Assembly: GCA_017395425.1 (NCBI GenBank)
Contig: JAFPUM010000034.1
Span: forward strand, 26,739-90,738
Direction: 5' to 3'
Length of the DNA: 64,000 nucleotides
Source: Clostridia bacterium
GTDB taxonomy: Bacteria; Bacillota; Clostridia; Oscillospirales; Acutalibacteraceae
The position numbers and the translations under genes were made by a program. The number at the start of each line of letters is the position of its first letter. The first letter of the stretch is position 1. Under the pieces are notes generated by a model, which made no database searches, was not told the origin of the DNA, and saw nothing but the letters and a program-made list of their open reading frames with translations. This document shows positions 10,686 through 63,580 of the stretch, piece by piece.

Positions 10686-10687
10686 AT

Positions 10688-10729
10688 AGTGATTAGTGAT
10701 CAGTGATTAGTGATTAGTGAGGAGTGGGG
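10688..10729 (+). repeat. Six tandem 7-nt units in the murE-murF spacer
   Basis: AGTGATT AGTGATC AGTGATT AGTGATT AGTGAGG AGTGGGG, read directly. Starts 3 nt after the murE stop. Confidence 0.85.
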
Positions 10730-10736
10730 TTTTCCC

Positions 10737-12113
10737 ATGGAAACCATGACATTACGCGAAATCGCGGCGGCGCTGGGATGCCATCTCGATGTCTGTGCCG
10801 ACGCGGTCATTACGAATATCACCATCGACAGCCGGGAGGCGGGGGAGGGAACCCTCTTCTTCGCCATCAAGGGCGACCGGTTTGATGCGCACGATTTCGT
10901 GGGCGACGTCATCGCCAAAGGCGCGGCGGCTGCCGTGTGCAGCCGTCCCGTGGAAGGCGTACCGGAAGAGAAGCTCCTGTTGGTTGCCGATACGCGGCTG
11001 GCGTTTCTGGCGCTGGCGGCTTATTACCGTGCCAAATTTGACATTCCCGTGGTGGGTCTGACCGGTTCAGTGGGCAAGACCACCACCAAGGAAATGGTGG
11101 CGGCGGTACTTTCGCAGAAATACAATACCCTTGCCACGCAGGGGAATCTCAACAACGAAATCGGCTTGCCCAAGATGTGCTTCCGTCTCGACCGCAGCGT
11201 GGAAGCGGCGGTGCTGGAGATGGGCATGAGCGGCTTCGGCGAAATTTCCCGGCTGACCCGCACGGCGCGTCCGACCGTGGGCATTATTACCAATATCGGC
11301 GTGTGCCACATTGAAATGCTCGGCTCCCGCGAGGGCATACTTCGCGCCAAAATGGAAATACTGGAAGGGATGGACGAAACCGCGCCCCTGATCATCAACG
11401 GCGACAACGATCTGCTGCCGGAAGGCGTCAAGGGCATTCCAAACCCGGTGATTGTGTGCGGCATCGACTGTGAAAATGCCGACTGCCGTGCCGAGGAAAT
11501 CGTACAGGACAGCGACGCCATGCGCTTTGTGATCAACTGGCGCGGGCAGCGGTATCCCGTGACGCTCCCCGCCGTGGGCATTCACAATGTGTACAACGCC
11601 TGCATTGCCTTTGCCTGCGGAATGCTGCTGAGCGTAACACCGGAACAGGCGGTGAGCGGTCTGGCAGGGTATGTCCCCACGGGAATGCGGCAAAAGATTG
11701 TGCGGCGGAACGGCTATACCGTCATCGAGGACTGCTACAACGCCAGCCCCGATTCCATCAAAGCCTCGCTCCGCGTGCTGCGTGACATGGACTGTGCGCG
11801 GCGGATCGTGGTGCTGGGGGATATGAAGGAGCTGGGCGACTATTCCCGCACGGCGCATACCGAGTGCGGACGTGCGGCGGCGGAATGCGGGATTGACGTG
11901 CTGCTGGCTTACGGCGACGAAGCCAAAGGGTATGTCGAAGGCGCGGGAAGCGGTGTGCCGACGGTGCTGCACTTCGACGATAAACAGGCGCTTTGCCGGA
12001 AACTCTGTGAGATGCGGCAGGAGGGCGACGCCATACTGGTCAAAGCCAGCCGCGCCATGAAGATGGAAGAAGTCATTGCGGCGATTTACAATAGCGATGA
12101 AAATCAAGCATAA
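10737..12113 (+). CDS. murF: UDP-MurNAc-tripeptide:D-Ala-D-Ala ligase (MurF)
   Basis: GLTGSVGKTTTKEM P-loop. Conserved N-terminus METMTLREIAAAL at ATG 10737, with AGGAG at 10720-10724. Confidence 0.93.
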   Translation: METMTLREIAAALGCHLDVCADAVITNITIDSREAGEGTLFFAIKGDRFDAHDFVGDVIAKGAAAAVCSRPVEGVPEEKLLLVADTRLAFLALAAYYRAKFDIPVVGLTGSVGKTTTKEMVAAVLSQKYNTLATQGNLNNEIGLPKMCFRLDRSVEAAVLEMGMSGFGEISRLTRTARPTVGIITNIGVCHIEMLGSREGILRAKMEILEGMDETAPLIINGDNDLLPEGVKGIPNPVIVCGIDCENADCRAEEIVQDSDAMRFVINWRGQRYPVTLPAVGIHNVYNACIAFACGMLLSVTPEQAVSGLAGYVPTGMRQKIVRRNGYTVIEDCYNASPDSIKASLRVLRDMDCARRIVVLGDMKELGDYSRTAHTECGRAAAECGIDVLLAYGDEAKGYVEGAGSGVPTVLHFDDKQALCRKLCEMRQEGDAILVKASRAMKMEEVIAAIYNSDENQA

Positions 12114-12305
12114 TTAGCCGCGTTTTTTTCCCAGGCGGCGGGGATTCCAAAGGGACGAGTCCCTTTGGCAGGTCAAGGGCAGCGCCCTTGCAGGAACCGG
12201 GGCAGCGCCCCGGCAGGCAGCACAACGTGCTGCCGGGCGAATCGCGCTAAGATCAACAACGGGGAAGGGCGAATCCGGAAAAGCAACCCTCCCACAAAGA
12301 TTTTT
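12112..12305 (+). repeat. Multi-hairpin intergenic element, copy A
   Basis: Non-coding 190-nt insert between murF and mraY, collinear with 26607-26792. Hairpins at 12117-12139, 12147-12168, 12174-12190, 12197-12213 and 12216-12234. Confidence 0.8.
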
Positions 12306-12369
12306 TCCCCCCTACCCAAAATTGTAAAACATCAGAGAAATTAAAAAAACATAAGGATGGTAATGGCAA

Positions 12370-13392
12370 ATGATACAGGAATACATCAGCCTGCTGGCGG
12401 CGGCTATCTCATTCGGCACCACCGCGCTTCTGGGAAAGAAGGTCATACCGTGGCTGCACAAGCTCAAATACGGTCAGACCATCAAGGATATCGGTCCCAA
12501 GTGGCATGAGAAAAAGCAGGGTACGCCCACGATGGGCGGTATTATGTTTATCGCCGGTATTCTGGCGGCGTTTCTGGTGTGCCTGCCCATCTATCATCAT
12601 TTGCAGTCTATGGGACGGATTGCCTCCTATTATGAAAATCAGGCATATTGGCTCCGGATGGTGGCGGGCATTCTGATGTCGCTGCTGTTCGGCGCGATCG
12701 GATTCCTGGACGACTATATCAAGGTCGTCAAGAAGCAGAACGAAGGACTGACGCCCTCGCAGAAGATGATTCTGATGATGCTGATTGCGGGCGCCTATCT
12801 GCTGTCGATTGCGCTGATGGGCGACGCGACTGTCACCACGATTCCCTTCCTCGGCGATGTGGACGTTCATTTCTGGTTCTATCCCATTTCGCTGATTATG
12901 ATCGTGGGATTTGTCAACGCGGTCAATCTGACCGACGGCATTGACGGTCTTTGTTCCTCGGTGACGTTTTTCACCGCCATCATTTTCATGATGATTGCGG
13001 GTATGCGCCATATGTTCGGCATGAACATTTTCGCGGCGGCTGTGGCAGGCGGCTGTATCGGTTTTCTGGTGTGGAACTTCTTTCCCGCCAAGGTCTTTAT
13101 GGGTGACACCGGCTCGCTCTTTCTGGGCGGTCTGTTCTGCGCGATGGCGTACAGCCTGAATATGCCGATTCTCGTGCCGCTGGTGGGCATCATCTACCTC
13201 TGCGAAGCGGGCTCGGTGATGCTGCAGGTGTCGTATTTCAAGCTGACCCACGGCAAGCGTATTTTCAAGATGAGTCCGATTCATCATCACTTTGAGATGA
13301 GCGGCTGGAGCGAGGTCAAAATTGTATGGAGCTTCAGTCTGATTACCCTGATTGCGGGCGTGATTGCCGTGGCGCTGACGCTGTTCTGCTGA
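12370..13392 (+). CDS. mraY: Phospho-MurNAc-pentapeptide translocase (MraY)
   Basis: Polytopic membrane protein with NAVNLTDGIDGL and FMGDTGSL motifs. 340 aa. Confidence 0.95.
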   Translation: MIQEYISLLAAAISFGTTALLGKKVIPWLHKLKYGQTIKDIGPKWHEKKQGTPTMGGIMFIAGILAAFLVCLPIYHHLQSMGRIASYYENQAYWLRMVAGILMSLLFGAIGFLDDYIKVVKKQNEGLTPSQKMILMMLIAGAYLLSIALMGDATVTTIPFLGDVDVHFWFYPISLIMIVGFVNAVNLTDGIDGLCSSVTFFTAIIFMMIAGMRHMFGMNIFAAAVAGGCIGFLVWNFFPAKVFMGDTGSLFLGGLFCAMAYSLNMPILVPLVGIIYLCEAGSVMLQVSYFKLTHGKRIFKMSPIHHHFEMSGWSEVKIVWSFSLITLIAGVIAVALTLFC

Positions 13393-16257: not shown

Positions 16258-18363
16258 TTGTGGGGAGATGTGAATTACTTGGGAGGTAAAAAGAAAAAGA
16301 AGAACCGTATGAATACGAGCTATGCGGGCAAATCGGGCAAGTCGGTCAGAACGGGGGGAACCAATCCTTCGGTTCCCTCTGCGGCGCAGGATAAATATGC
16401 CAAATACGCGGGAGCGGTGAGCAATAAATCCAAGCGCAATTATGCCGATCTGCGGCTGGTCAGTCCCTCCGAACTGCGGGGGAATCCTGTTTCGTCGGTA
16501 CCGTCGGTTGCAAACGGCGGTACTAAAAAAACGCCGGGACAGCCCGTGAAGAGCAGCGGCGCCAAAAAGCCTTCGGGACAGCCCATGAAGAGCGGCAGTG
16601 CCAAGAAGCCTTCGGGACAGCCCGTGAAGAGCGGCAGTGCCAAGAAGCCTTCAGGACAGCCCGTGAAGAGCGGCAGTGCAAAAAAATCTTCGGGACAGCC
16701 CGTGAAGAGCGGCAGTGCCGGGAGCAGGAAACCGATCAGACAGCCCATGCACACCGTCTCCGGAAACATAACACAATCGGTGAATCAGCAGTTTCGCGGC
16801 GGCAAACGGGGGAACATCCAAAGAGCGCCATCCAAGCCATCCAAGCCCCATACCAGACCGACACCCGAAGTCAAAGCACCGGTATATGCCGACGACGAAT
16901 ACAGCCGTGCGCTGAACAATTCGGATTTTTACGGCGATCTGGTGGAAAAATATTACATCAAGTACCCCGAGAAGCAGGAGGAGCGCAAATCAGCTCCGGG
17001 GTCTGCGGCGGCAAGGGAACGTGCCGCGCGGCGCAAGGTGCGCAGAAGCCCGATGGAATCGGTGGTGAGTGAGGGCACCGCCAAAAAGGAAGGTCAAGCC
17101 AGGGACGCACGTCCCTCCATCGCGGAACTGGCGGTCAGAAACCGCGGCACCGATCGGAAAAAGCAGTACGCAAAGGTGGTCAAGACGGGTAAAGCAAAAG
17201 GCAGCATTCCCACGGGTTCGGTACATCGGAAAGTACGCCGCATCAACCGTCAGCGGAGCCTGTTTCTCTACGCGGCTTCGGCAGCGTCCGTGGTAGCGGT
17301 GCTGTGTTTTCTGTTTTTCTTCTGGGGATTCAAGGTCAAGCAGATTGTGGTAGAAGGTGAAACGCCTTACAGTGATAACCGCATTACCTCGCTCTGCGAT
17401 TTCACGCAGGGAGACAATCTGATGTTCATTGATACCGCCGTGTCGGAACGTCAGGTGGTGGAATCGCTGCCGTATGTGGAAACCTGTAAGGTGAAACGCG
17501 CCATTCCCCATTCAGTGGAAGTCAATGTAACCTGTGCGGTGCCGCTGGGTGTGGCGGAGGCAGGCAGTGCCGAATGGGTGATTGTGAGCACCAGCGGCAA
17601 GATTCTGGAAAGCGTTTCCGCGGCGGCGGTGGTGAGCGGAAGTGATCTGGGCGATACGGGTGTATCGACGGCATACACGGCGCAGGAACTGGCAGCCGCC
17701 CGGAAACTGCCGGTACTGGTAGGACTGGAGATGGATCAGGTCAATGTCGGCAGCTTTGTCAACGGCAGTTCCGTGGCAACGGTCAACGGTTTTGCCTGCA
17801 TCTATGAGGAAGCGCAGGCACTCGGTCTGACGCTGGATAAGCTCAAGTACACCGACCGGGGATATGAAGCGGAATATGACGGCAGAATCAATATCGTGCT
17901 GGGCGATACCGATGACCGCAGCATTATCCGGAAGCGACTGGAAATCATCCATCATATCATGTTCGTCAAGTGTGACATCAGCGAGCATGAACGGGGCGAG
18001 ATTACCTATCTGAAAAATCAGATTTTCTTCGATCCCACCTATGACTTCTCGGAAGAGGAACTCGCCAAGTATGCCGAAAAACAGGCAGCAAAACAGAAGA
18101 AAGAAAATTCCCTCGGCAAGCTGGGTGAAGCCGCCGTATCGCTGCTCGATGAAGGCGTGAGCCTGCTGCACCGGGAGAATACCACTACGGCAGCCACTAC
18201 CAAGACCACAGCCGCCAAGACTACGGCAGCCACTACGAAGACCACAGCCACTACCAAGACCACAGCCGCTACAGCGAAGATAACAACTGCTGCTGAAACC
18301 ACCACATCCGAAACCACCGCGGCACAAACGGCAGCATCCGCCACGACAGCGGCAGGGCAGTGA
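16258..18363 (+). CDS. ftsQ: FtsQ/DivIB-like cell division protein with a long repetitive N-terminal extension
   Basis: TM segment (LFLYAASAASVVAVLCFLFFFWGF) followed by a POTRA-like region (VKQIVVEGETPYSDNRITS...). In the position between murG and ftsZ. Start uncertain (16258 or ATG 16309). Confidence 0.75.
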   Translation: MWGDVNYLGGKKKKKNRMNTSYAGKSGKSVRTGGTNPSVPSAAQDKYAKYAGAVSNKSKRNYADLRLVSPSELRGNPVSSVPSVANGGTKKTPGQPVKSSGAKKPSGQPMKSGSAKKPSGQPVKSGSAKKPSGQPVKSGSAKKSSGQPVKSGSAGSRKPIRQPMHTVSGNITQSVNQQFRGGKRGNIQRAPSKPSKPHTRPTPEVKAPVYADDEYSRALNNSDFYGDLVEKYYIKYPEKQEERKSAPGSAAARERAARRKVRRSPMESVVSEGTAKKEGQARDARPSIAELAVRNRGTDRKKQYAKVVKTGKAKGSIPTGSVHRKVRRINRQRSLFLYAASAASVVAVLCFLFFFWGFKVKQIVVEGETPYSDNRITSLCDFTQGDNLMFIDTAVSERQVVESLPYVETCKVKRAIPHSVEVNVTCAVPLGVAEAGSAEWVIVSTSGKILESVSAAAVVSGSDLGDTGVSTAYTAQELAAARKLPVLVGLEMDQVNVGSFVNGSSVATVNGFACIYEEAQALGLTLDKLKYTDRGYEAEYDGRINIVLGDTDDRSIIRKRLEIIHHIMFVKCDISEHERGEITYLKNQIFFDPTYDFSEEELAKYAEKQAAKQKKENSLGKLGEAAVSLLDEGVSLLHRENTTTAATTKTTAAKTTAATTKTTATTKTTAATAKITTAAETTTSETTAAQTAASATTAAGQ
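16522..16716 (+). repeat. In-frame 39-bp tandem repeat x5 inside ftsQ
   Basis: Encodes (S/T)(A/K)KKPSGQP(V/M)KSG units. Copies start at 16522, 16561, 16600, 16639 and 16678. Confidence 0.9.
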
Positions 18364-26606: not shown

Positions 26607-26792
26607 AATTAGCCGCGCAGCGGCGCGGGGTGCAGGGGGTGAGCTCCCTGCCGAGGTCAAGGGCGAGTAGCCCTTGCAGGGGACCGGGGGCAGCGCCACC
26701 GGTAGGCAGGCGGAAGCCTGCCGAGCGAGATGAGTCAAGATCTATAACGGGGTCGGGCGAATTCTTTAACAGAACCCTCCCAAACAGATTTC
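26607..26792 (+). repeat. Multi-hairpin intergenic element, copy B
   Basis: Collinear with 12112-12305. Hairpins at 26613-26628, 26632-26651, 26658-26676, 26684-26702 and 26705-26722. Confidence 0.8.
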
Positions 26793-26804: not shown

Positions 26805-26833
26805 TTGACGTGGAGAAATGCCTGTGCTATAAT
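26805..26833 (+). promoter_or_regulatory. Candidate promoter of the PHP phosphatase gene
   Basis: -35 TTGACG (26805-26810), extended -10 TGcTATAAT (26825-26833), 17-nt spacing between the hexamers. Confidence 0.6.
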
Positions 26834-36520: not shown

Positions 36521-37155
36521 AAACCAAACACATCGCGGTCTTTGTATCGGGCGGCGGTACCAACCTGCAAGCCCTGATTGACGCACAGGCGCGCGGCGAA
36601 ATCAAGTACGGCGAGATTACCTTTGTCCTTGCCAGCAATGACAGGGCATACGCGATCGAACGCGCCAGGAAAGCCGGTATCGAATACGAAGTGGTATCCC
36701 GCAAGGCATACGCTGACAGCGAAGCATACGACGCGGCGATTCTCGCCGCGCTGGAACACCGGAGCATTGACCTCATTGTGCTGGCGGGATTCCTCTCCAT
36801 TCTCGGACCCTCCGTCATTGAGAAATACCGCAACCGGATTATCAATATTCATCCCTCCCTGATACCGCTCTTCTGCGGCGACGGCTTTTACGGCAAGAAG
36901 GTACACACCGCCGTACTCGCGAGCGGCATGAAGGTAACGGGCGCGACGGCGCACTTCGTCAACGAAATCACCGACGGCGGCGCGATTATCCTGCAAAAGG
37001 CGGTTCCCATCGAGCAGGGCGACAACGAGGATATTCTGCAATACCGCGTGATGCGGCAGGCGGAGTGGGAGATACTGCCCAAAGCGGTGAGCCTTTTCTG
37101 TGAGGAACGGATACGGATTGACGGAAACCGGACAGAAATAGTGAATAATGAATAG
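36514..37155 (+). CDS. purN: GAR formyltransferase (PurN)
   Basis: [23 protein letters not shown] and GATAHFV motifs. Start overlaps the purM end. The last codons (IVNNE) and the stop lie in the heptad repeat. Confidence 0.93.
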
Positions 37156-37197
37156 TGAAGAGCGAATAATGAATAATGTCGGAAGTCCTTCGGACTT
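37140..37197 (+). repeat. 7-nt tandem repeats plus hairpin (locus 1)
   Basis: AGTGAAT AATGAAT AGTGAAG AGCGAAT AATGAAT AATGTCG (37140-37181), then hairpin AAGTCC-TTC-GGACTT (37183-37197). Confidence 0.85.
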
Positions 37198-40068: not shown

Positions 40069-40117
40069 AGTGAATGGTGAATAATGAATAGTGAATAATG
40101 GCGGAGCGCTGCGCGCT
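40069..40117 (+). repeat. 7-nt tandem repeats plus hairpin (locus 2)
   Basis: AGTGAAT GGTGAAT AATGAAT AGTGAAT AATGGCG (40069-40103), then hairpin AGCGC-TGC-GCGCT (40105-40117). Shares the 19-mer GTGAATAATGAATAGTGAA with locus 1. Confidence 0.85.
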
Positions 40118-42016: not shown

Positions 42017-45000
42017 ATGAGAAAGAAACTCGTTGTGGCGCTGGCGCTGGTGCTGGCGTTGACAAGTGCGGCGGCATTGCCGACATACACCGCCTATCTG
42101 CCGACGGTGTGTGCCGCGAGTACGAACAGCGGTGATTTTCAGATTGAAAAGGGCGTGCTGGTCAATTACACGGGCGAAGCCAAAGAAGTGGTGATTCCGA
42201 GCAGTGTCACCGCCATCGGGGAAAGGGCATTCAGTTACTGCACCACCGTGGAGAAAGTGACTATTCCCAACACAGTCAAGACCATCGGCGACGGCGCGTT
42301 TGCGTATTGCTACGAGCTGGAGAGCGTCACGATTCCGGGTTCCGTCACGTCGATCGGTGCGGAGGCGTTTACTTATACGGAACTGAAGCAGGTGACGCTG
42401 CCCGATTCGGTCAAGACCGTCGGCAACAACGCCTTTGAAGGCTGCCGTATGATGACGCAGGTGACCTTGCCGGGCACGATGACCGATATCCCCGTCGGAA
42501 TGTTTTACAACTGCATCAATCTCCCAAGCGTGACGCTTCCCAAAAATACCAAAACGATTGGCGCAAACGCCTTTTTCGGCTGCGGCGTGCTGCGGGATAT
42601 CACGCTGCCGTCCTCCGTCAAATCCATCGGCGGGAGCGCGTTCAGCGGGTGCGCCTGCCTCACCGATATCGTGATTCCAAGCGCCGTCACCCGCATTGAG
42701 GACGGCACGTTCCACGGCTGTACGAGACTGAAAAGCGTGACGGTTCCCGATTCCGTGACCTATATCGGTCGGAACGCTTTCAGCGACTGCTGGGAACTGA
42801 CAAGCCTGCCGATTCCCAAAGGGGTCACGTCGATTGACGGCGCGTTTCAGCAGTGCTACGCGCTGACTGACGTGACGGTTCCCGCCTCGGTCACGTCGAT
42901 GAATGACGCGTTTGCGTCCTGCACCGGTCTGAAAACCGTCCGCCTTTCGTCCGGTGTCAGGTCGCTGGACGGCGCGTTCAGCGGTTGCGAGAGCCTGACG
43001 GGTGTTACGATTCCCCAAGGGGTTACTTCCCTCGGCAACTACACCTTTTACAACTGCCGCAGTCTGACCGGCTTGACGGTTCCCGATTCCGTGACATCGG
43101 TCGGTATCTGGGCATTCAGCGGCTGCACCGGTCTGACCGACCTCGTGCTGCCGGACAGCGTAACCACCGTGGACAGTTACGCGTTCAGCGGGTGCAGCAA
43201 TCTGAAACATATCACCCTCTCCAAAAAGCTCACATCGCTCGGCGGCGGCGCGTTTGAATATTGCGCGGCGCTGACCGATGTAAACATCCCGAAGTCGCTC
43301 ACTGTCATTGAAGACGGTATGTTTGCGGGCTGCAAGGGTCTGACAAGCGTGACGATTCCGAACACCATCACCTCTGTCGGCGGGGGAGCGTTTAAGGGGT
43401 GCGGCAGTCTGACTTCTATCACATTGCCCGCTTCCGTCAAATCGCTGGGGAGCAACACGTTTTACGGGTGCGGCAATCTGACAAGCGTGACGCTTCCTGA
43501 TTCCGTGACGAACATTCCGGGCGGAATGTTCGGACAGTGTAAAAAACTTACAAATGTGACGATTCCGTCCGGTGTCACCTCCATCGGCAGCTGGGCGTTT
43601 GAGGATTGCAGAGGCATCAGGAGCCTGACCATTCCGAAATCCGTGAAGAGTCTCGGAGACGGCGCGTTTGCGGGCTGTACCGGGTTGACGGGTATTACGG
43701 TTCCCGCGTCGGTGACGACGCTGCCGGACAGCGTGTTCGCCGGCTGTCTGAACCTGACAAGCGTGAAGCTGGCGGGCAATGTCACGTCCATCGGCAGTTT
43801 TGCTTTCAGCGAATGCAGCAATCTGATGAACTTTACGATACCCGGCACGGTGAAATCCGTCGGCATGTATGCCTTCAACCGATGCAGCACTTTGACGAGC
43901 ATGACGGTGCCGGATGCCGTAAAAACCGTGGAAGACGGCACGTTCTACAACTGTTTCCGCATGACCCGCGTGACGCTACCCAAATCCGTGACGCAGATCG
44001 AATACGACGCGTTTATGGGAACGGGGTTGGAAAACGTATTCTACGCCGGTTCCGAGAGCCAGTGGAAGGGTATTTCCATCAGCGCCGGCAACAATCGGCT
44101 GGTCAACGCCAAGAAATACTACAACGGCAAGACGATTCCCGAAATCGTGATTACCGCGCACCCGGCGGATGTGCAGGGCAAGCTCGGGGAGGCTGTCTCC
44201 ATGCAGGTCAAGGCGACCGGCAGCGGACTGACCTATCAGTGGCAGCTGAGTGACGACGGCGGCAAGACGTGGCGGGACAGCTCGGTGAAAACCGCGCGTT
44301 ATGACACGACGCTCACCGAGAAGAATGACGGACGGTTCGTCCGCTGCGTGCTGACCGACAGTTACGGCAGCAAGCTCATCACCAAGAGCGCGACCATGAA
44401 AATCAACACGCTGGAAATCACCCGCCAGCCTGTCAGCGTGACCGTCCCATACGGCGCGGCGGTGTCCTTCCGCGTCAAGGCGGTGGGTCTTGATGTGAAG
44501 TATCAATGGCAGCTCAGCGATGACAGCGGGAAAACATGGCGCAACAGCTCCGTGCAGACGGCGGATTACAGTACCACGCTCACCGAAAAGAACGCGGGAC
44601 GCTGCGTCCGCTGTGTCGTCACCGACAAAGACGGCAGGCAGCTGATTTCCGACACCGCGTCCATGAATCCCGACGGTGTGACCATCACCGCACAGCCTTC
44701 CGACAGCAAGGTCAGATTCGGCGGCACGGTTTCCTTTGCGGTCAAGGCGACCGGCGGCAAGCTTGCCTACCAGTGGCAGCTCAGCGACGACGCGGGCAAG
44801 ACGTGGCGGAACAGTTCCGTGAAGACCGCCAATTATCAGACCACACTCAGCGAAAAGAATATCGGTCGGTATGTCCGCTGCGTTGTCACCAACCCGGGCG
44901 GCGCGACAGCGACTTCCCAAGCCGCCGTTATGCGGCTGGACGGTGTGGGAATTACATTACAGCCCGCAGACAGCAAAGCGTCTATCGGCGGAAAAGTGTC

Positions 45001-45211
45001 CTTCCGCGTCAAGGCAGTGGGCGAGGGTCTGATTTATCAGTGGCAGCTCAGTGATGACGCGGGCAAGACGTGGCGCAACAGTTCCGTGAAGACCGCGACG
45101 TATGGAACTACCCTGACGGACAAAAACAACGGCAGATCTGTCCGCTGCATAGTGACGGACAAATACGGCCATCAGGCAATTTCCAAAACCGGGGTCATGA
45201 GGGTGAAGTAA
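42017..45211 (+). CDS. Secreted BspA-type leucine-rich-repeat protein with four C-terminal Ig-like repeats
   Basis: Signal peptide (MRKKLVVALALVLALTSAAA). About 26 units of the pattern LTSVTIPxSVTSIGxxAFxxC. Then 4 x 89 aa units with a YQWQLSDDxGKTWR core. No LPXTG or TM at the C-terminus. Confidence 0.85.
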   Translation: MRKKLVVALALVLALTSAAALPTYTAYLPTVCAASTNSGDFQIEKGVLVNYTGEAKEVVIPSSVTAIGERAFSYCTTVEKVTIPNTVKTIGDGAFAYCYELESVTIPGSVTSIGAEAFTYTELKQVTLPDSVKTVGNNAFEGCRMMTQVTLPGTMTDIPVGMFYNCINLPSVTLPKNTKTIGANAFFGCGVLRDITLPSSVKSIGGSAFSGCACLTDIVIPSAVTRIEDGTFHGCTRLKSVTVPDSVTYIGRNAFSDCWELTSLPIPKGVTSIDGAFQQCYALTDVTVPASVTSMNDAFASCTGLKTVRLSSGVRSLDGAFSGCESLTGVTIPQGVTSLGNYTFYNCRSLTGLTVPDSVTSVGIWAFSGCTGLTDLVLPDSVTTVDSYAFSGCSNLKHITLSKKLTSLGGGAFEYCAALTDVNIPKSLTVIEDGMFAGCKGLTSVTIPNTITSVGGGAFKGCGSLTSITLPASVKSLGSNTFYGCGNLTSVTLPDSVTNIPGGMFGQCKKLTNVTIPSGVTSIGSWAFEDCRGIRSLTIPKSVKSLGDGAFAGCTGLTGITVPASVTTLPDSVFAGCLNLTSVKLAGNVTSIGSFAFSECSNLMNFTIPGTVKSVGMYAFNRCSTLTSMTVPDAVKTVEDGTFYNCFRMTRVTLPKSVTQIEYDAFMGTGLENVFYAGSESQWKGISISAGNNRLVNAKKYYNGKTIPEIVITAHPADVQGKLGEAVSMQVKATGSGLTYQWQLSDDGGKTWRDSSVKTARYDTTLTEKNDGRFVRCVLTDSYGSKLITKSATMKINTLEITRQPVSVTVPYGAAVSFRVKAVGLDVKYQWQLSDDSGKTWRNSSVQTADYSTTLTEKNAGRCVRCVVTDKDGRQLISDTASMNPDGVTITAQPSDSKVRFGGTVSFAVKATGGKLAYQWQLSDDAGKTWRNSSVKTANYQTTLSEKNIGRYVRCVVTNPGGATATSQAAVMRLDGVGITLQPADSKASIGGKVSFRVKAVGEGLIYQWQLSDDAGKTWRNSSVKTATYGTTLTDKNNGRSVRCIVTDKYGHQAISKTGVMRVK
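44141..45208 (+). repeat. Four in-frame 267-bp tandem repeats (Ig-like modules)
   Basis: 1068 nt equals 4 x 89 codons. Each unit carries YQWQLSDD(G/S/A)GKTWR and VRCV(L/V)T. Confidence 0.85.
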
Positions 45212-46296: not shown

Positions 46297-46439
46297 CGCC
46301 GTTCCGCATATTCTGACGGTGGAAAATAAACCGTCAATCGTGAATCTTTCACAATTATGCCGGTGATGTTTTGGACAATTGTGTGGTTTTCACGGTTGAC
46401 AAATTTTCCACCGTATGATTTAATAATATAAGTCAGAAA

Positions 46440-46600
46440 TCAGCGCCTGCCCCTGACCTTGATAGGGTTCAAAAAAATTGTCAGGGGGACGAGGATGGAA
46501 GTTTATCGAAAGATTCGGCGGATGCTTCCCGGCTTGACAGAGGAGCTGCCATCCGGCACACAAATCCCGCGGGCAACGGCGGGGACAAACGTGCCGGAAC
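46440..46600 (+). ncRNA. glmS leader: glmS ribozyme (GlcN6P-responsive self-cleaving riboswitch)
   Basis: A|GCGCC cleavage-site context at 46442/46443. Core GACGAGGATGGAAGTTTATCGAAAGATTCGGCGGATGCTTCCCGGCT closely matches the conserved glmS core. GGCG (46517-46520) can pair with CGCC (46444-46447). P4-like CCGGCAC (46553-46559) pairs with GTGCCGG (46591-46597). Immediately upstream of glmS. Confidence 0.85.
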
Positions 46601-46627
46601 TCTGTGATACAATGGAGGTACTTATCT

Positions 46628-62735: not shown

Positions 62736-63428
62736 GTGAGAAAAAGAAAGATAAAAAAATTGCCGGCATATTTTATTGTGCCGGTAATTTTTGCTGTTTT
62801 GGGATACGGTGTGTTGAGAGTGGCATTGACACCCGTATGGGAACTGGGCATGGCGGCGGCTTCCATGATGCTGCTGGAGGATGCCCCCAATTTTTATCCG
62901 GAACTGACTACCACCTATGACCCCGATGCCCTGAAAGCTGCCAAGACGGAAGAAAAATGGATTAATGCCGCCGATGTGACGCTCCCGCGTCATGGCGAGC
63001 ATTACGGCAAACTGATGTGCGAGCGCATCGGACTGAGCGCGCCGGTCTACTGGGGCGATGAAAACCGCATTCTGCGCAGCGGCGCGGGACAGTACGAGAT
63101 CAGCTCCCTGCCGGGATTCGGTGAGCCGATCATTATCTGCGCTCATAACACAACGTTTTTCCGTCCGCTGAAGAAGGCGGAAAAGGATGATGTGATTGTG
63201 TTCGATACCAATTACGACACCTACCGCTATCAGGTGACGGAGGTGTCGGTTCTGGAAGAAAAGGAACTGGCTAAAACATTTGACACGCTGCTGACCGCGA
63301 GCGACAGCGAGGAAACGCTGCTGCTGTATACCTGCTATCCCTTCCATGCCATTTCCGGACGCAAGACCAAACGGTTTTGTGTCTTTGGCAAGCGCATTGA
63401 AGGCGCGGACGTGAAATGGGGTGCGTAA
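62736..63428 (+). CDS. Sortase family transpeptidase
   Basis: N-terminal TM anchor, catalytic His (IICAHNT), Cys (LLLYTCYPF) and Arg (KRFCVFGKR). GTG start, with GGAG 7 nt upstream. Confidence 0.8.
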   Translation: MRKRKIKKLPAYFIVPVIFAVLGYGVLRVALTPVWELGMAAASMMLLEDAPNFYPELTTTYDPDALKAAKTEEKWINAADVTLPRHGEHYGKLMCERIGLSAPVYWGDENRILRSGAGQYEISSLPGFGEPIIICAHNTTFFRPLKKAEKDDVIVFDTNYDTYRYQVTEVSVLEEKELAKTFDTLLTASDSEETLLLYTCYPFHAISGRKTKRFCVFGKRIEGADVKWGA

Positions 63429-63472
63429 CATTGGCGGAAAAAAAGAAGACGACGCATCATCATACGTCGGGA

Positions 63473-63562
63473 AGCAGTCATTCGCATAGCAGAAGCCATT
63501 CGCATAGCAGAAGCCATTCGCACAGTGGTAGCAGTCATTCGCACAGCACCAGCCATTCTCAC
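63473..63562 (+). repeat. In-frame degenerate 15-21-nt tandem repeats encoding (S/H)-rich units
   Basis: AGCAGTCATTCGCAT / AGCAGAAGCCATTCGCAT / AGCAGAAGCCATTCGCAC / AGTGGTAGCAGTCATTCGCAC / AGCACCAGCCATTCTCAC. Confidence 0.85.
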
Positions 63563-63580
63563 AGCGGAGGAACCTCCAAG

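Follow-up and report, generated by a model that had tools for sequence, protein, structure and literature searches.

In a 64,000-nt stretch of DNA from a Clostridia bacterium (contig JAFPUM010000034.1; hereafter the window), the Mur ligase gene murF and the downstream gene mraY, both part of the cell-wall (dcw) cluster, are separated by an insert of about 190 nt made of consecutive GC-rich hairpins. A second copy lies further along the window. We find that the insert is a member of a family of DNA repeats, short and rich in hairpins, that is spread across gut and rumen Clostridia. The family has not been catalogued before, and is the same kind of thing as repetitive extragenic palindromes (REPs), bacterial interspersed mosaic elements (BIMEs) and BOX repeats, not a new class of RNA gene. 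The host of the window belongs to a Clostridia lineage: its MraY is 81-82% identical to that of metagenome-assembled genomes (MAGs) named 'Clostridia bacterium' and 64% identical to that of Oscillospiraceae.

Two copies of a hairpin-rich element in the window

A first-pass annotation, made from the sequence, had described an element with hairpins H0 to H4 between murF and mraY, beginning inside the murF stop codon, and every coordinate it gave matches the sequence. The murF stop is the TAA at 12111-12113, and the leader AATTAGCCGCG, common to copy A, copy B and a B-type copy at locus L001 (below), begins at 12112. The 5' end of copy A thus falls within the stop codon, and its 3' end lies about 65 nt ahead of mraY. 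The features are as follows.

10710-12113, +: murF (Mur ligase), co-oriented gene upstream of copy A
12112-12305, +: copy A, A-type subfamily (profile hidden Markov model search with nhmmer, E = 1e-16)
12117-12139, +: H0 of copy A, GCCGC/GCGGC stem (12117-12121 / 12135-12139) with a T-rich loop of 13 nt
12147-12168, +: H1 of copy A, arms CCAAAGGGA/TCCCTTTGG (listed also as CCAAAGGGAC / GTCCCTTTGG), GGGATT directly 5'
12170-12194, +: H2 core of copy A, AGGT-CAAGGGC-AGC-GCCCTTG-CAGG, the block used as query to find the family
12174-12190, +: H2 of copy A, CAAGGGC/GCCCTTG
12197-12213, +: H3 of copy A, CCGGGGC AGC GCCCCGG (family form GGGRC-AGM-GYCCC)
12216-12234, +: H4 of copy A, GGCAGCAC AAC GTGCTGCC, a module found only in the A/B subfamily
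12235-12305, +: 3' domain of copy A, with two GGGCGAAT motifs (12235-12242 and 12267-12274), a predicted stem and a T6 run
12370-13392, +: mraY, dcw cluster, gene downstream of copy A
26607-26792, +: copy B, B-type subfamily (nhmmer E = 1.6e-10)
26613-26628, 26632-26651, 26658-26676, 26683-26703 and 26705-26722, +: H0, H1, H2, H3 and H4 of copy B, from minimum-free-energy and centroid structures

In the 3' domain of copy A, the predicted stem pairs GGGGAAGGG with CCCTCCC (12261-12269 / 12287-12293) inside AAGATC / GATTTT, and the T6 run follows. Copy B starts 8 nt past the stop codon of a serpin gene and has the promoter of a PHP-domain gene downstream. As had been proposed, the two copies are in the same orientation and collinear, with 78% column identity, and their H1 and H4 stems differ in sequence and still pair: in copy B, H1 is GCAGGGGG/CTCCCTGC and H4 is GGCAGGC/GCCTGCC. 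An inverted-repeat search of copy A found the arms of H1, H2 and H3 to be 100% complementary and H4 to be a 13-nt arm pair at 85%. Folding was more stable than in dinucleotide shuffles (z = -3.4 for copy A, -2.3 for copy B).

Within the 64 kb, exactly two occurrences were counted for the 26-nt 3' block and exactly two for the H2 block, against shuffle expectations of 0.02 and 0.00; with expectations near zero, a chance or low-complexity artefact is ruled out. Mismatch-tolerant patterns, fuzzy regular expressions, blastn and nhmmer profiles revealed no third copy within the window. A 40-nt blastn match at 63074-63113 was taken as chance: long open reading frames (ORFs) cover that region and the profile searches did not match it. 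The first-pass annotation had also held that the element contains no ORF, which was incorrect at the level of ORF calls, as frames of 48-59 amino acids overlap copy A at 12073-12225 (-), 12165-12344 (+) and 12173-12319 (-).

Further copies in gut and rumen Clostridia

GTDB representative genomes scanned with the 3' block yielded one locus, L001 (6.8 kb), from an uncultured Clostridia MAG. It holds an A-type copy 94% identical to copy A, a B-type copy 27 nt past dnaA, and a partial copy at the contig end. The A-type copy carries a G-C to A-T compensation in H3, a change also present across the family, and the B-type copy has the leader CCAATTAGCCGCGCAGCGGCGCGG as in the window copies and an intrinsic terminator after it. 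The dnaA-dnaN spacer of L001 (3300-3600) contains a cluster of DnaA-box-like words (TGTGGACA, GTGGACAA, TCCACC) and resembles oriC; it is flanked by the B-type and A-type copies, tail-to-tail.

A metagenome scan with the H2 core (AGGTCAAGGGC, 3-9 nt, GCCCTTGCAGG) matched 94 stretches, which come from samples of human gut, rumen and camel, so that the repeat family postulated from two window copies now extends to L001 and these stretches. At least two of the 94 (L019, L048) are chance matches in coding-like sequence. About 35 come from one abundant human gut species and apparently represent a single orthologous locus, at which the copy consists of H2 and H3 only and runs in antisense to prfC, which encodes release factor 3, about 40 nt past the stop codon of that gene; many of these copies come after the terminator hairpin of the convergent upstream gene.

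The remaining metagenome loci carry the main-family element, about 175 nt long, at unrelated sites. Its 5' part runs A-rich leader, GGGWTT, H1 (CCAAAGGG..CCCTTTGG), TCAGGT, H2, CAGGG, H3 (GGGRC-AGM-GYCCC), and its 3' part continues with GCGCTCYGCAARGGGTGAAT, H5, AGAGG and H6; the linker that follows H3 includes GGGTGAAT. H1 is the 5' hairpin of the whole family and its stem covaries across it. The window copies have H1-H3 and a GGGYGAAT motif in common with the main family, and have an H0, H4 and 3' end of their own. Main-family hosts are Ruminococcus: the glutamine synthetase III encoded next to the L010 copy is 86% identical to Ruminococcus sp. MAG proteins. The A- and B-type copies of the window form a rare subfamily; the family as a whole is much larger and has its centre in this genus.

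Several contigs hold two or three copies, and several begin or end inside an element, as expected because repeats break assemblies. At L036 (5655-5709) the element is joined to a Nextera adaptor, CTGTCTCTTATACACATCT, an assembly artefact of the public contig. Collections of plasmids and phages gave only two kinds of informative match: a divergent variant, on a faecal phage scaffold that is unverified, and, on IMG/VR contigs, three short versions of the element. The H2 stem is changed to GCAGGGC/GCCCTGC on MT839740.1, and H2 is wholly missing from the plus-strand copy of L073, from L113 and from the IMG/VR loci. Literature searches by sequence strings and by topic found no published description of the family.

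Compensatory changes in the stems

Five helices were placed by hand on a MAFFT alignment of 26 distinct full copies and standard pairs were counted; the structure was checked by hand because some rows of the MAFFT alignments have H1 displaced by one column. Standard pairs occupy 97.6% of stem cells, compared with 90.6% in shuffles. Both sides have changed at 20 of the 51 pairs (104 cells), a level that none of 500 shuffles reached, and sliding the partners by 1-3 columns brings pairing down to 31-58%. These counts are to be read with the structure having been derived from the same, mutually related sequences. H2 is invariant in this set by construction, since the search pattern fixed it; H5 and H6, both free of that constraint, have double changes at 8 of 14 and 6 of 12 pairs, respectively. 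The family is thus multi-copy with stems kept by compensatory change, and the family-wide pair counts agree with the earlier suggestion that structure rather than sequence is preserved. G.U pairs outnumber A.C mismatches in stem cells by 21 to 13, a comparison of few events that are not independent.

Presence, absence and rearrangement at orthologous sites

The gap between murF and mraY was compared between the window and related loci, ordered by MraY identity to the window.

Window: 256 nt, element present
L108 (MraY 97% identical): 256 nt, identical element
L105 (90%): 150 nt, element absent
L098 (89%): 82 nt, element absent
L099-L104 (82%): 51-54 nt, element absent

About 150 kb of dcw-region DNA from relatives contained no copy. 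Judged from these gaps, copy A is a lineage-specific insertion, in a comparison where the intergenic DNA and the MurF C terminus of the relatives are too diverged to give exact junctions. The description of the surroundings as an otherwise tight cluster fits the relatives, whose gaps are 51-150 nt, and not the window itself, where the insert has widened the gap to 256 nt. The MurF tail of the window (..IYNSDENQA*; 12090-12113) differs in length and sequence from the tails ..IYRVLDE*, ..VYGVIPE* and ..VYDVIAG* in L098, L099, L101 and L105, and the insertion may have replaced the last murF codons and supplied the stop codon.

Other orthologous sites vary as well. The flanks of L010 and L113 are virtually identical, and of these two loci, one has a main-type copy in the shared slot, the other a different variant that points the opposite way; about 55 kb of loci from Ruminococcus relatives of L010 contained no copy. 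The orthologous loci L038 and L057 differ by entire hairpin modules. Modules are therefore gained, lost and inverted at orthologous sites. Many Ruminococcus copies are tail-to-tail doublets with a homologous spacer, which gives them inverted ends of about 30 nt; among adjacent pairs, 11 are tail-to-tail (5'-outward), none is head-to-head and 1 is tandem.

Left flanks, compared with the strictly conserved 4-5 nt target expected of an IS200/IS605-derived PATE or a TnpB guide-RNA remnant, are A-rich with no fixed word, and no target duplication was seen at the flanks of single copies or doublets. An inverted-repeat search bore out the earlier statement that neither window copy has a terminal inverted repeat. 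A transposable element of the miniature inverted-repeat type (MITE) with terminal repeats and target duplications was rejected, single copies showing neither. In an all-versus-all comparison of 1214 ORFs neighbouring the copies (about 0.75 Mb of loci), no protein family recurred except orthologues and ABC ATPases, and no tnpA- or tnpB-like family recurred among neighbouring proteins of the sampled loci. On this comparison of the sampled loci, an association with a transposase was also rejected; the DDE fragment joined to the element in L050 and L059 is a single rearrangement. L050 (860-1100) and L059 (5250-4970), as well as L086 at its minus-strand end, carry an element that is interrupted within the H3 loop (GGGACAG|ATG...) and fused to a 95-residue C-terminal fragment of a DDE (PF01609) transposase. 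This break may be the remnant of an insertion sequence (IS) that entered the hairpin, and we liken it to IS1397 in REPs.

Genomic location and transcription signals

Positions relative to genes were counted from crude ORF calls on de-duplicated loci. Gaps that hold a copy are convergent in 12 cases and divergent in 5; in co-directional gaps, 7 copies are same-sense and 7 antisense. The 5' end lies about 0-35 nt from a co-oriented stop codon at some 16 independent loci, in addition to both window copies, and in the L073 doublet each half comes after its own gene of a convergent pair. The elements favour gene 3' ends and convergent gaps, about half of them beginning no more than 35 nt from a co-oriented stop, and their orientation is not strict. 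Genes beside copies are functionally unrelated (murF, serpin, dnaA/dnaN, feoB/glnN, corA, ABC ATPase and ABC transporter genes, prfC), which rules out a riboswitch or a leader specific to a class of genes.

No terminator-like site was found at copy A or copy B. In the main family, H6 scores as terminator-like in L073 and L089 and does not in L003. From copy A to mraY, a promoter scan gave no promoter-like site on the plus strand. A promoter-like sequence, TTTACA-18-CATAAT (12085-12114, +; 10 of 12 matches), straddles the boundary of murF and the element and would start transcription near the first bases of copy A. Many main-family copies likewise have a -10-like TAATAAT or TATGAAT directly upstream. 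Just 3' of copy B lies a further, strong site that would serve the next gene:

26805-26833, +: promoter-like TTGACG-17-TG-TATAAT (11 of 12 matches)

Relation to known repeats and RNA families

REPs and BIMEs of enterobacteria and pseudomonads resemble the family in being short GC-rich extragenic palindromes in mosaic arrays (PMC3733652, PMC3049150, PMC2777011). Like the family, they sit at gene 3' ends and in operons, vary between strains and carry no transposase gene of their own; co-transcription with neighbouring genes would be a further shared trait. Their stable stems impede 3' exonucleases (PMC3733652, PMC3049150, PMC2777011). A REP is one type of palindrome tagged GTAG or CGTC, and a BIME alternates the orientation of such units, whereas the hairpins here each have their own sequence and follow a fixed order in one polarity. 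With hairpins of 17-23 nt at about 90 loci, the family compares in size and number with REPs, which are imperfect palindromes of 20-40 bp in many copies. The tags GTAG and CGTC (PMC3733652) occur in neither copy A nor copy B, where CAGG or TAGG follows the hairpins; CTAC occurs once, outside the hairpins (12306-12312), and GACG only in the apex of H1. Nor does the same unit alternate in orientation as in a BIME: the hairpins all differ and have one polarity, with fixed linkers between them. No REP-associated tyrosine transposase (RAYT) was seen beside copies in about 0.75 Mb of sampled loci. The first-pass suggestion of a REP/BIME-like element therefore stands as far as the repeat is dispersed, modular, rich in hairpins, polymorphic in presence and biased to gene 3' ends, and fails on the definition of REP and BIME.

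Downstream of the element in L003, L021, L056, L080, L081 and L087 are other hairpin repeats that end in CTAC (GTAG on the opposite strand), for example GGGACGTCGAGGACGCCGTCCCCTAC and GGGCGGATAATATCCGCCCCTAC. Classical GTAG-tagged REP-like units coexist with the family in rumen Clostridia.

Compared by architecture only, BOX of Streptococcus pneumoniae is close to the family: a composite Firmicutes repeat with a fixed order and variable number of modules, highly structured, over-represented between convergent genes, and co-transcribed with its neighbours with slow turnover (PMC3049150). In BOX, the boxA and boxC ends serve as terminal inverted repeats, boxB forms a tandem array, and the distribution is limited to pneumococci and their close relatives; the family, by contrast, has single copies without terminal repeats and occurs in several Oscillospirales genera. 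SPRITE of S. pneumoniae also lies near gene 3' ends and between convergent genes (PMC3049150), and the last hairpin of some family copies is terminator-like; SPRITE is, however, a simple element, while a terminator-like hairpin is missing from the window copies, of which copy A is located inside an operon. The distribution of BOX, RUP and SPRITE in pneumococci matches the location pattern of the family (PMC3049150), and REP, BIME, ERIC, BOX and SPRITE behave similarly in other bacteria (PMC3049150, PMC3733652, PMC2777011). MITEs such as Correia, RUP and ERIC share small size, lack of autonomy, extensive base pairing and insertion polymorphism with the family, but differ from it in that single family copies lack terminal inverted repeats, that no target-site duplication was found, and that the family is GC-rich rather than AT-rich.

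Rfam 15, searched with the window copies and 18 related loci at the gathering score and at permissive E-values, gave no match above threshold at the element. With nothing above the Rfam threshold a known RNA family is ruled out, in line with the first-pass view that the insert belongs to no named one. The best Rfam match is Clostridiales-2 (RF02937), an orphan small RNA candidate, whose model aligns with the A-rich leader, GGG, the B-type H1 (GGGGUGCAGGGG...CCCCUGCCG) and the next linker and does not fit in its second half. It scores 16.8 bits in copy B and 24.9 bits in L051 against a gathering score of 58.6, and copy A and the main family do not match it. Within 14 family loci, significant Rfam matches were limited to one T-box leader and one tRNA, neither of them at the element; a sub-threshold tfoR match in L063 (1244-1335) reached 27.3 bits against a cut-off of 70.

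Interpretation

Copies A and B are probably small interspersed composite repeats that act in operon mRNA in the manner of REP, BIME and BOX. The family would then consist of non-coding, non-autonomous, GC-rich stem-loop modules in a fixed order (GGGWTT-H1-(T)CAGGT-H2-CAGGG-H3 onward) with short conserved linkers, spread across gut and rumen Oscillospirales (Ruminococcus, Clostridia) and a few phage-like contigs. In a recent ancestor, copy A would have been inserted right at the murF end. Its transcription within the dcw operon mRNA is most likely, because the element lacks a canonical terminator and is followed by no promoter but by essential dcw genes; with no plus-strand promoter-like site found between copy A and mraY, expression of the downstream dcw genes would need read-through of the element. 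The mRNA would then carry five or six stable stems straight after the murF stop. In bacteria that have been studied more closely, stems of this kind stop 3' exonucleases and can dampen expression downstream (PMC3049150, PMC2777011, PMC12320835). By analogy, the stems of copy A are probably a decay barrier or an attenuator: they could hold up 3'-to-5' exonucleases and so shield the upstream murF segment, or act as a partial brake on transcription or translation into mraY. Because copy A abuts the stop codon, it might also hinder terminating ribosomes. In 2015, Liang, Rudd and Deutscher reportedly observed that E. coli REPs less than about 15 nt from a stop codon stalled terminating ribosomes. 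As for its spread, selection on the hairpins, with neither terminal inverted repeats nor target duplications present, suggests that the family moves in single-stranded form or by recombination rather than through a DDE transposase of the cut-and-paste kind.

Several observations weigh against a REP-, BIME- or BOX-like repeat. The orientation bias is only moderate, with the upstream gene co-oriented in 28 cases and opposed in 17 by the crude ORF calls. The window has 2 copies in 64 kb, and the 3' block had a single further match (L001) among GTDB representatives. Mobility is read from presence and absence patterns only, and the sampled loci showed no mobilising enzyme, target motif or target duplication. 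The G.U and A.C counts (21 versus 13) do not establish selection at the RNA level on the element strand. Finally, conserved single-stranded linkers and a core kept across hosts of 37-58% GC exceed the needs of a purely selfish repeat.

One alternative is a dedicated structured RNA, either a cis-acting module of the 3' untranslated region (UTR) or a multi-copy small RNA, with a specific molecular partner. The hairpins and linkers (AGGT, CAGGG, GGGTGAAT, AGAGG) would form a platform for binding a protein or the ribosome, and the repeats would be gene copies, not junk. Five helices with strong compensatory variation beside invariant linkers, a core retained in hosts of very different GC content, a G.U pair that one subfamily keeps in H1 and the sub-threshold likeness to Clostridiales-2 all point this way, as do a 5' end often right after a co-oriented stop, adjacent pairs that are mostly 5'-outward (11 versus 1 tandem), and -10-like A/T-rich leaders upstream of many copies, with the promoter-like site at 12085-12114. 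We nevertheless regard it as unlikely, given that the neighbouring genes are unrelated, that about one-third of copies are antisense to flanking genes, that modules, including the highly conserved H2, are dispensable, that close relatives lack the element at the same site and over tens of kb, and that either orientation is possible in one slot (L010/L113). The dedicated non-coding RNA gene that the first-pass annotation had offered as its other option is likewise less likely because the gene contexts are unrelated, orientation is mixed and modules come and go. A related and slightly less doubtful version, which we still hold to be a minority prospect, is that the whole family is more than selfish DNA: a portable structured 3'-UTR RNA module, its covarying stems joined by conserved linkers, that sets mRNA fate or recruits a specific protein, with Clostridiales-2 as a subfamily.

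A further alternative is a portable, SPRITE-like terminator or attenuator cassette whose main effect would be to halt or damp transcription at gene ends. In its favour, copies are enriched between convergent genes and near stop codons, SPRITE has the same distribution (PMC3049150), and in the Ruminococcus main family H6 (a 13-bp stem with 7 G-C pairs) with its T-rich tail looks like a terminator in L073 and L089. Such a cassette is nonetheless improbable in our view: both window copies lack a terminator-like site, copy A interrupts the essential dcw operon and the scan showed no promoter-like site on the plus strand between it and mraY, the T tail is missing in L003-type copies, and several copies follow or precede an ordinary intrinsic terminator (L001 B-type, L059, L073). 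We give equally little credence to the proposal that the hairpins matter at the DNA level only, through recognition of single-stranded DNA by an HUH/Y1-type enzyme (RAYT- or IS200/IS605-like) or through another DNA-binding or recombination protein, with any RNA effects incidental. It would account for the lack of terminal inverted repeats and target duplications, for stem mismatch counts without clear strand asymmetry and for copies in both orientations; units of a stem plus CAGG recall tagged REPs (PMC3733652), and GTAG-tagged REP-like hairpins coexist in the same rumen loci. Yet no Y1/HUH or other transposase recurs near copies in what is a small DNA sample, the left flank is not a conserved target sequence, and stop-codon proximity and 5'-outward pairing track the local direction of genes.

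Small interspersed repeats are well described in proteobacteria and streptococci, and we found none described for the uncultured Oscillospirales that dominate gut and rumen. The family breaks metagenome assemblies, with many contigs ending in an element, and creates strain-level differences at gene ends; in the window it has placed about 190 nt of what would be very stable RNA structure inside an essential cell-wall operon. A defined family model would improve annotation of gut and rumen Clostridia, flag false 'novel ncRNA' (non-coding RNA) calls and help to test whether elements of this kind adjust operon stoichiometry in Firmicutes, which degrade mRNA with a machinery different from the one in E. 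coli. It is useful for annotation and operon-tuning studies and is not a new principle; the possible link to the orphan Rfam motif Clostridiales-2 is a small bonus. Were the portable RNA module the true explanation, it would explain Clostridiales-2 and establish a class of RNA that is widespread, numbers hundreds of copies per genome and is used by gut and rumen Oscillospirales and some of their phages.

Other features of the window

The window carries arrays of heptamers at 10687-10721, 37139-37180 and 40070-40100. Between murE and murF, directly after the murE stop, TAGTGAT is repeated five times, and TAGTGAA/TAATGAA units are found elsewhere; the arrays give stops in several reading frames. 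In the rumen loci L016, L029, L047, L066 and L083, runs of comparable heptamers (TTAGCCN, GTAGTGA) are found upstream of family elements.

The only Rfam family detected in the window was the glmS ribozyme/riboswitch (46431-46608, +), with 100.8 bits against a gathering score of 37, which fits a Firmicutes host. Tandem repeats whose periods are multiples of 3 occur at 42290-43990 (units of about 69 nt), 44150-45160 (four units of 267 nt), 16495-16719 (39 nt), and 18184-18273 and 63452-63568 (18 nt each); they look like repeat domains of surface proteins.

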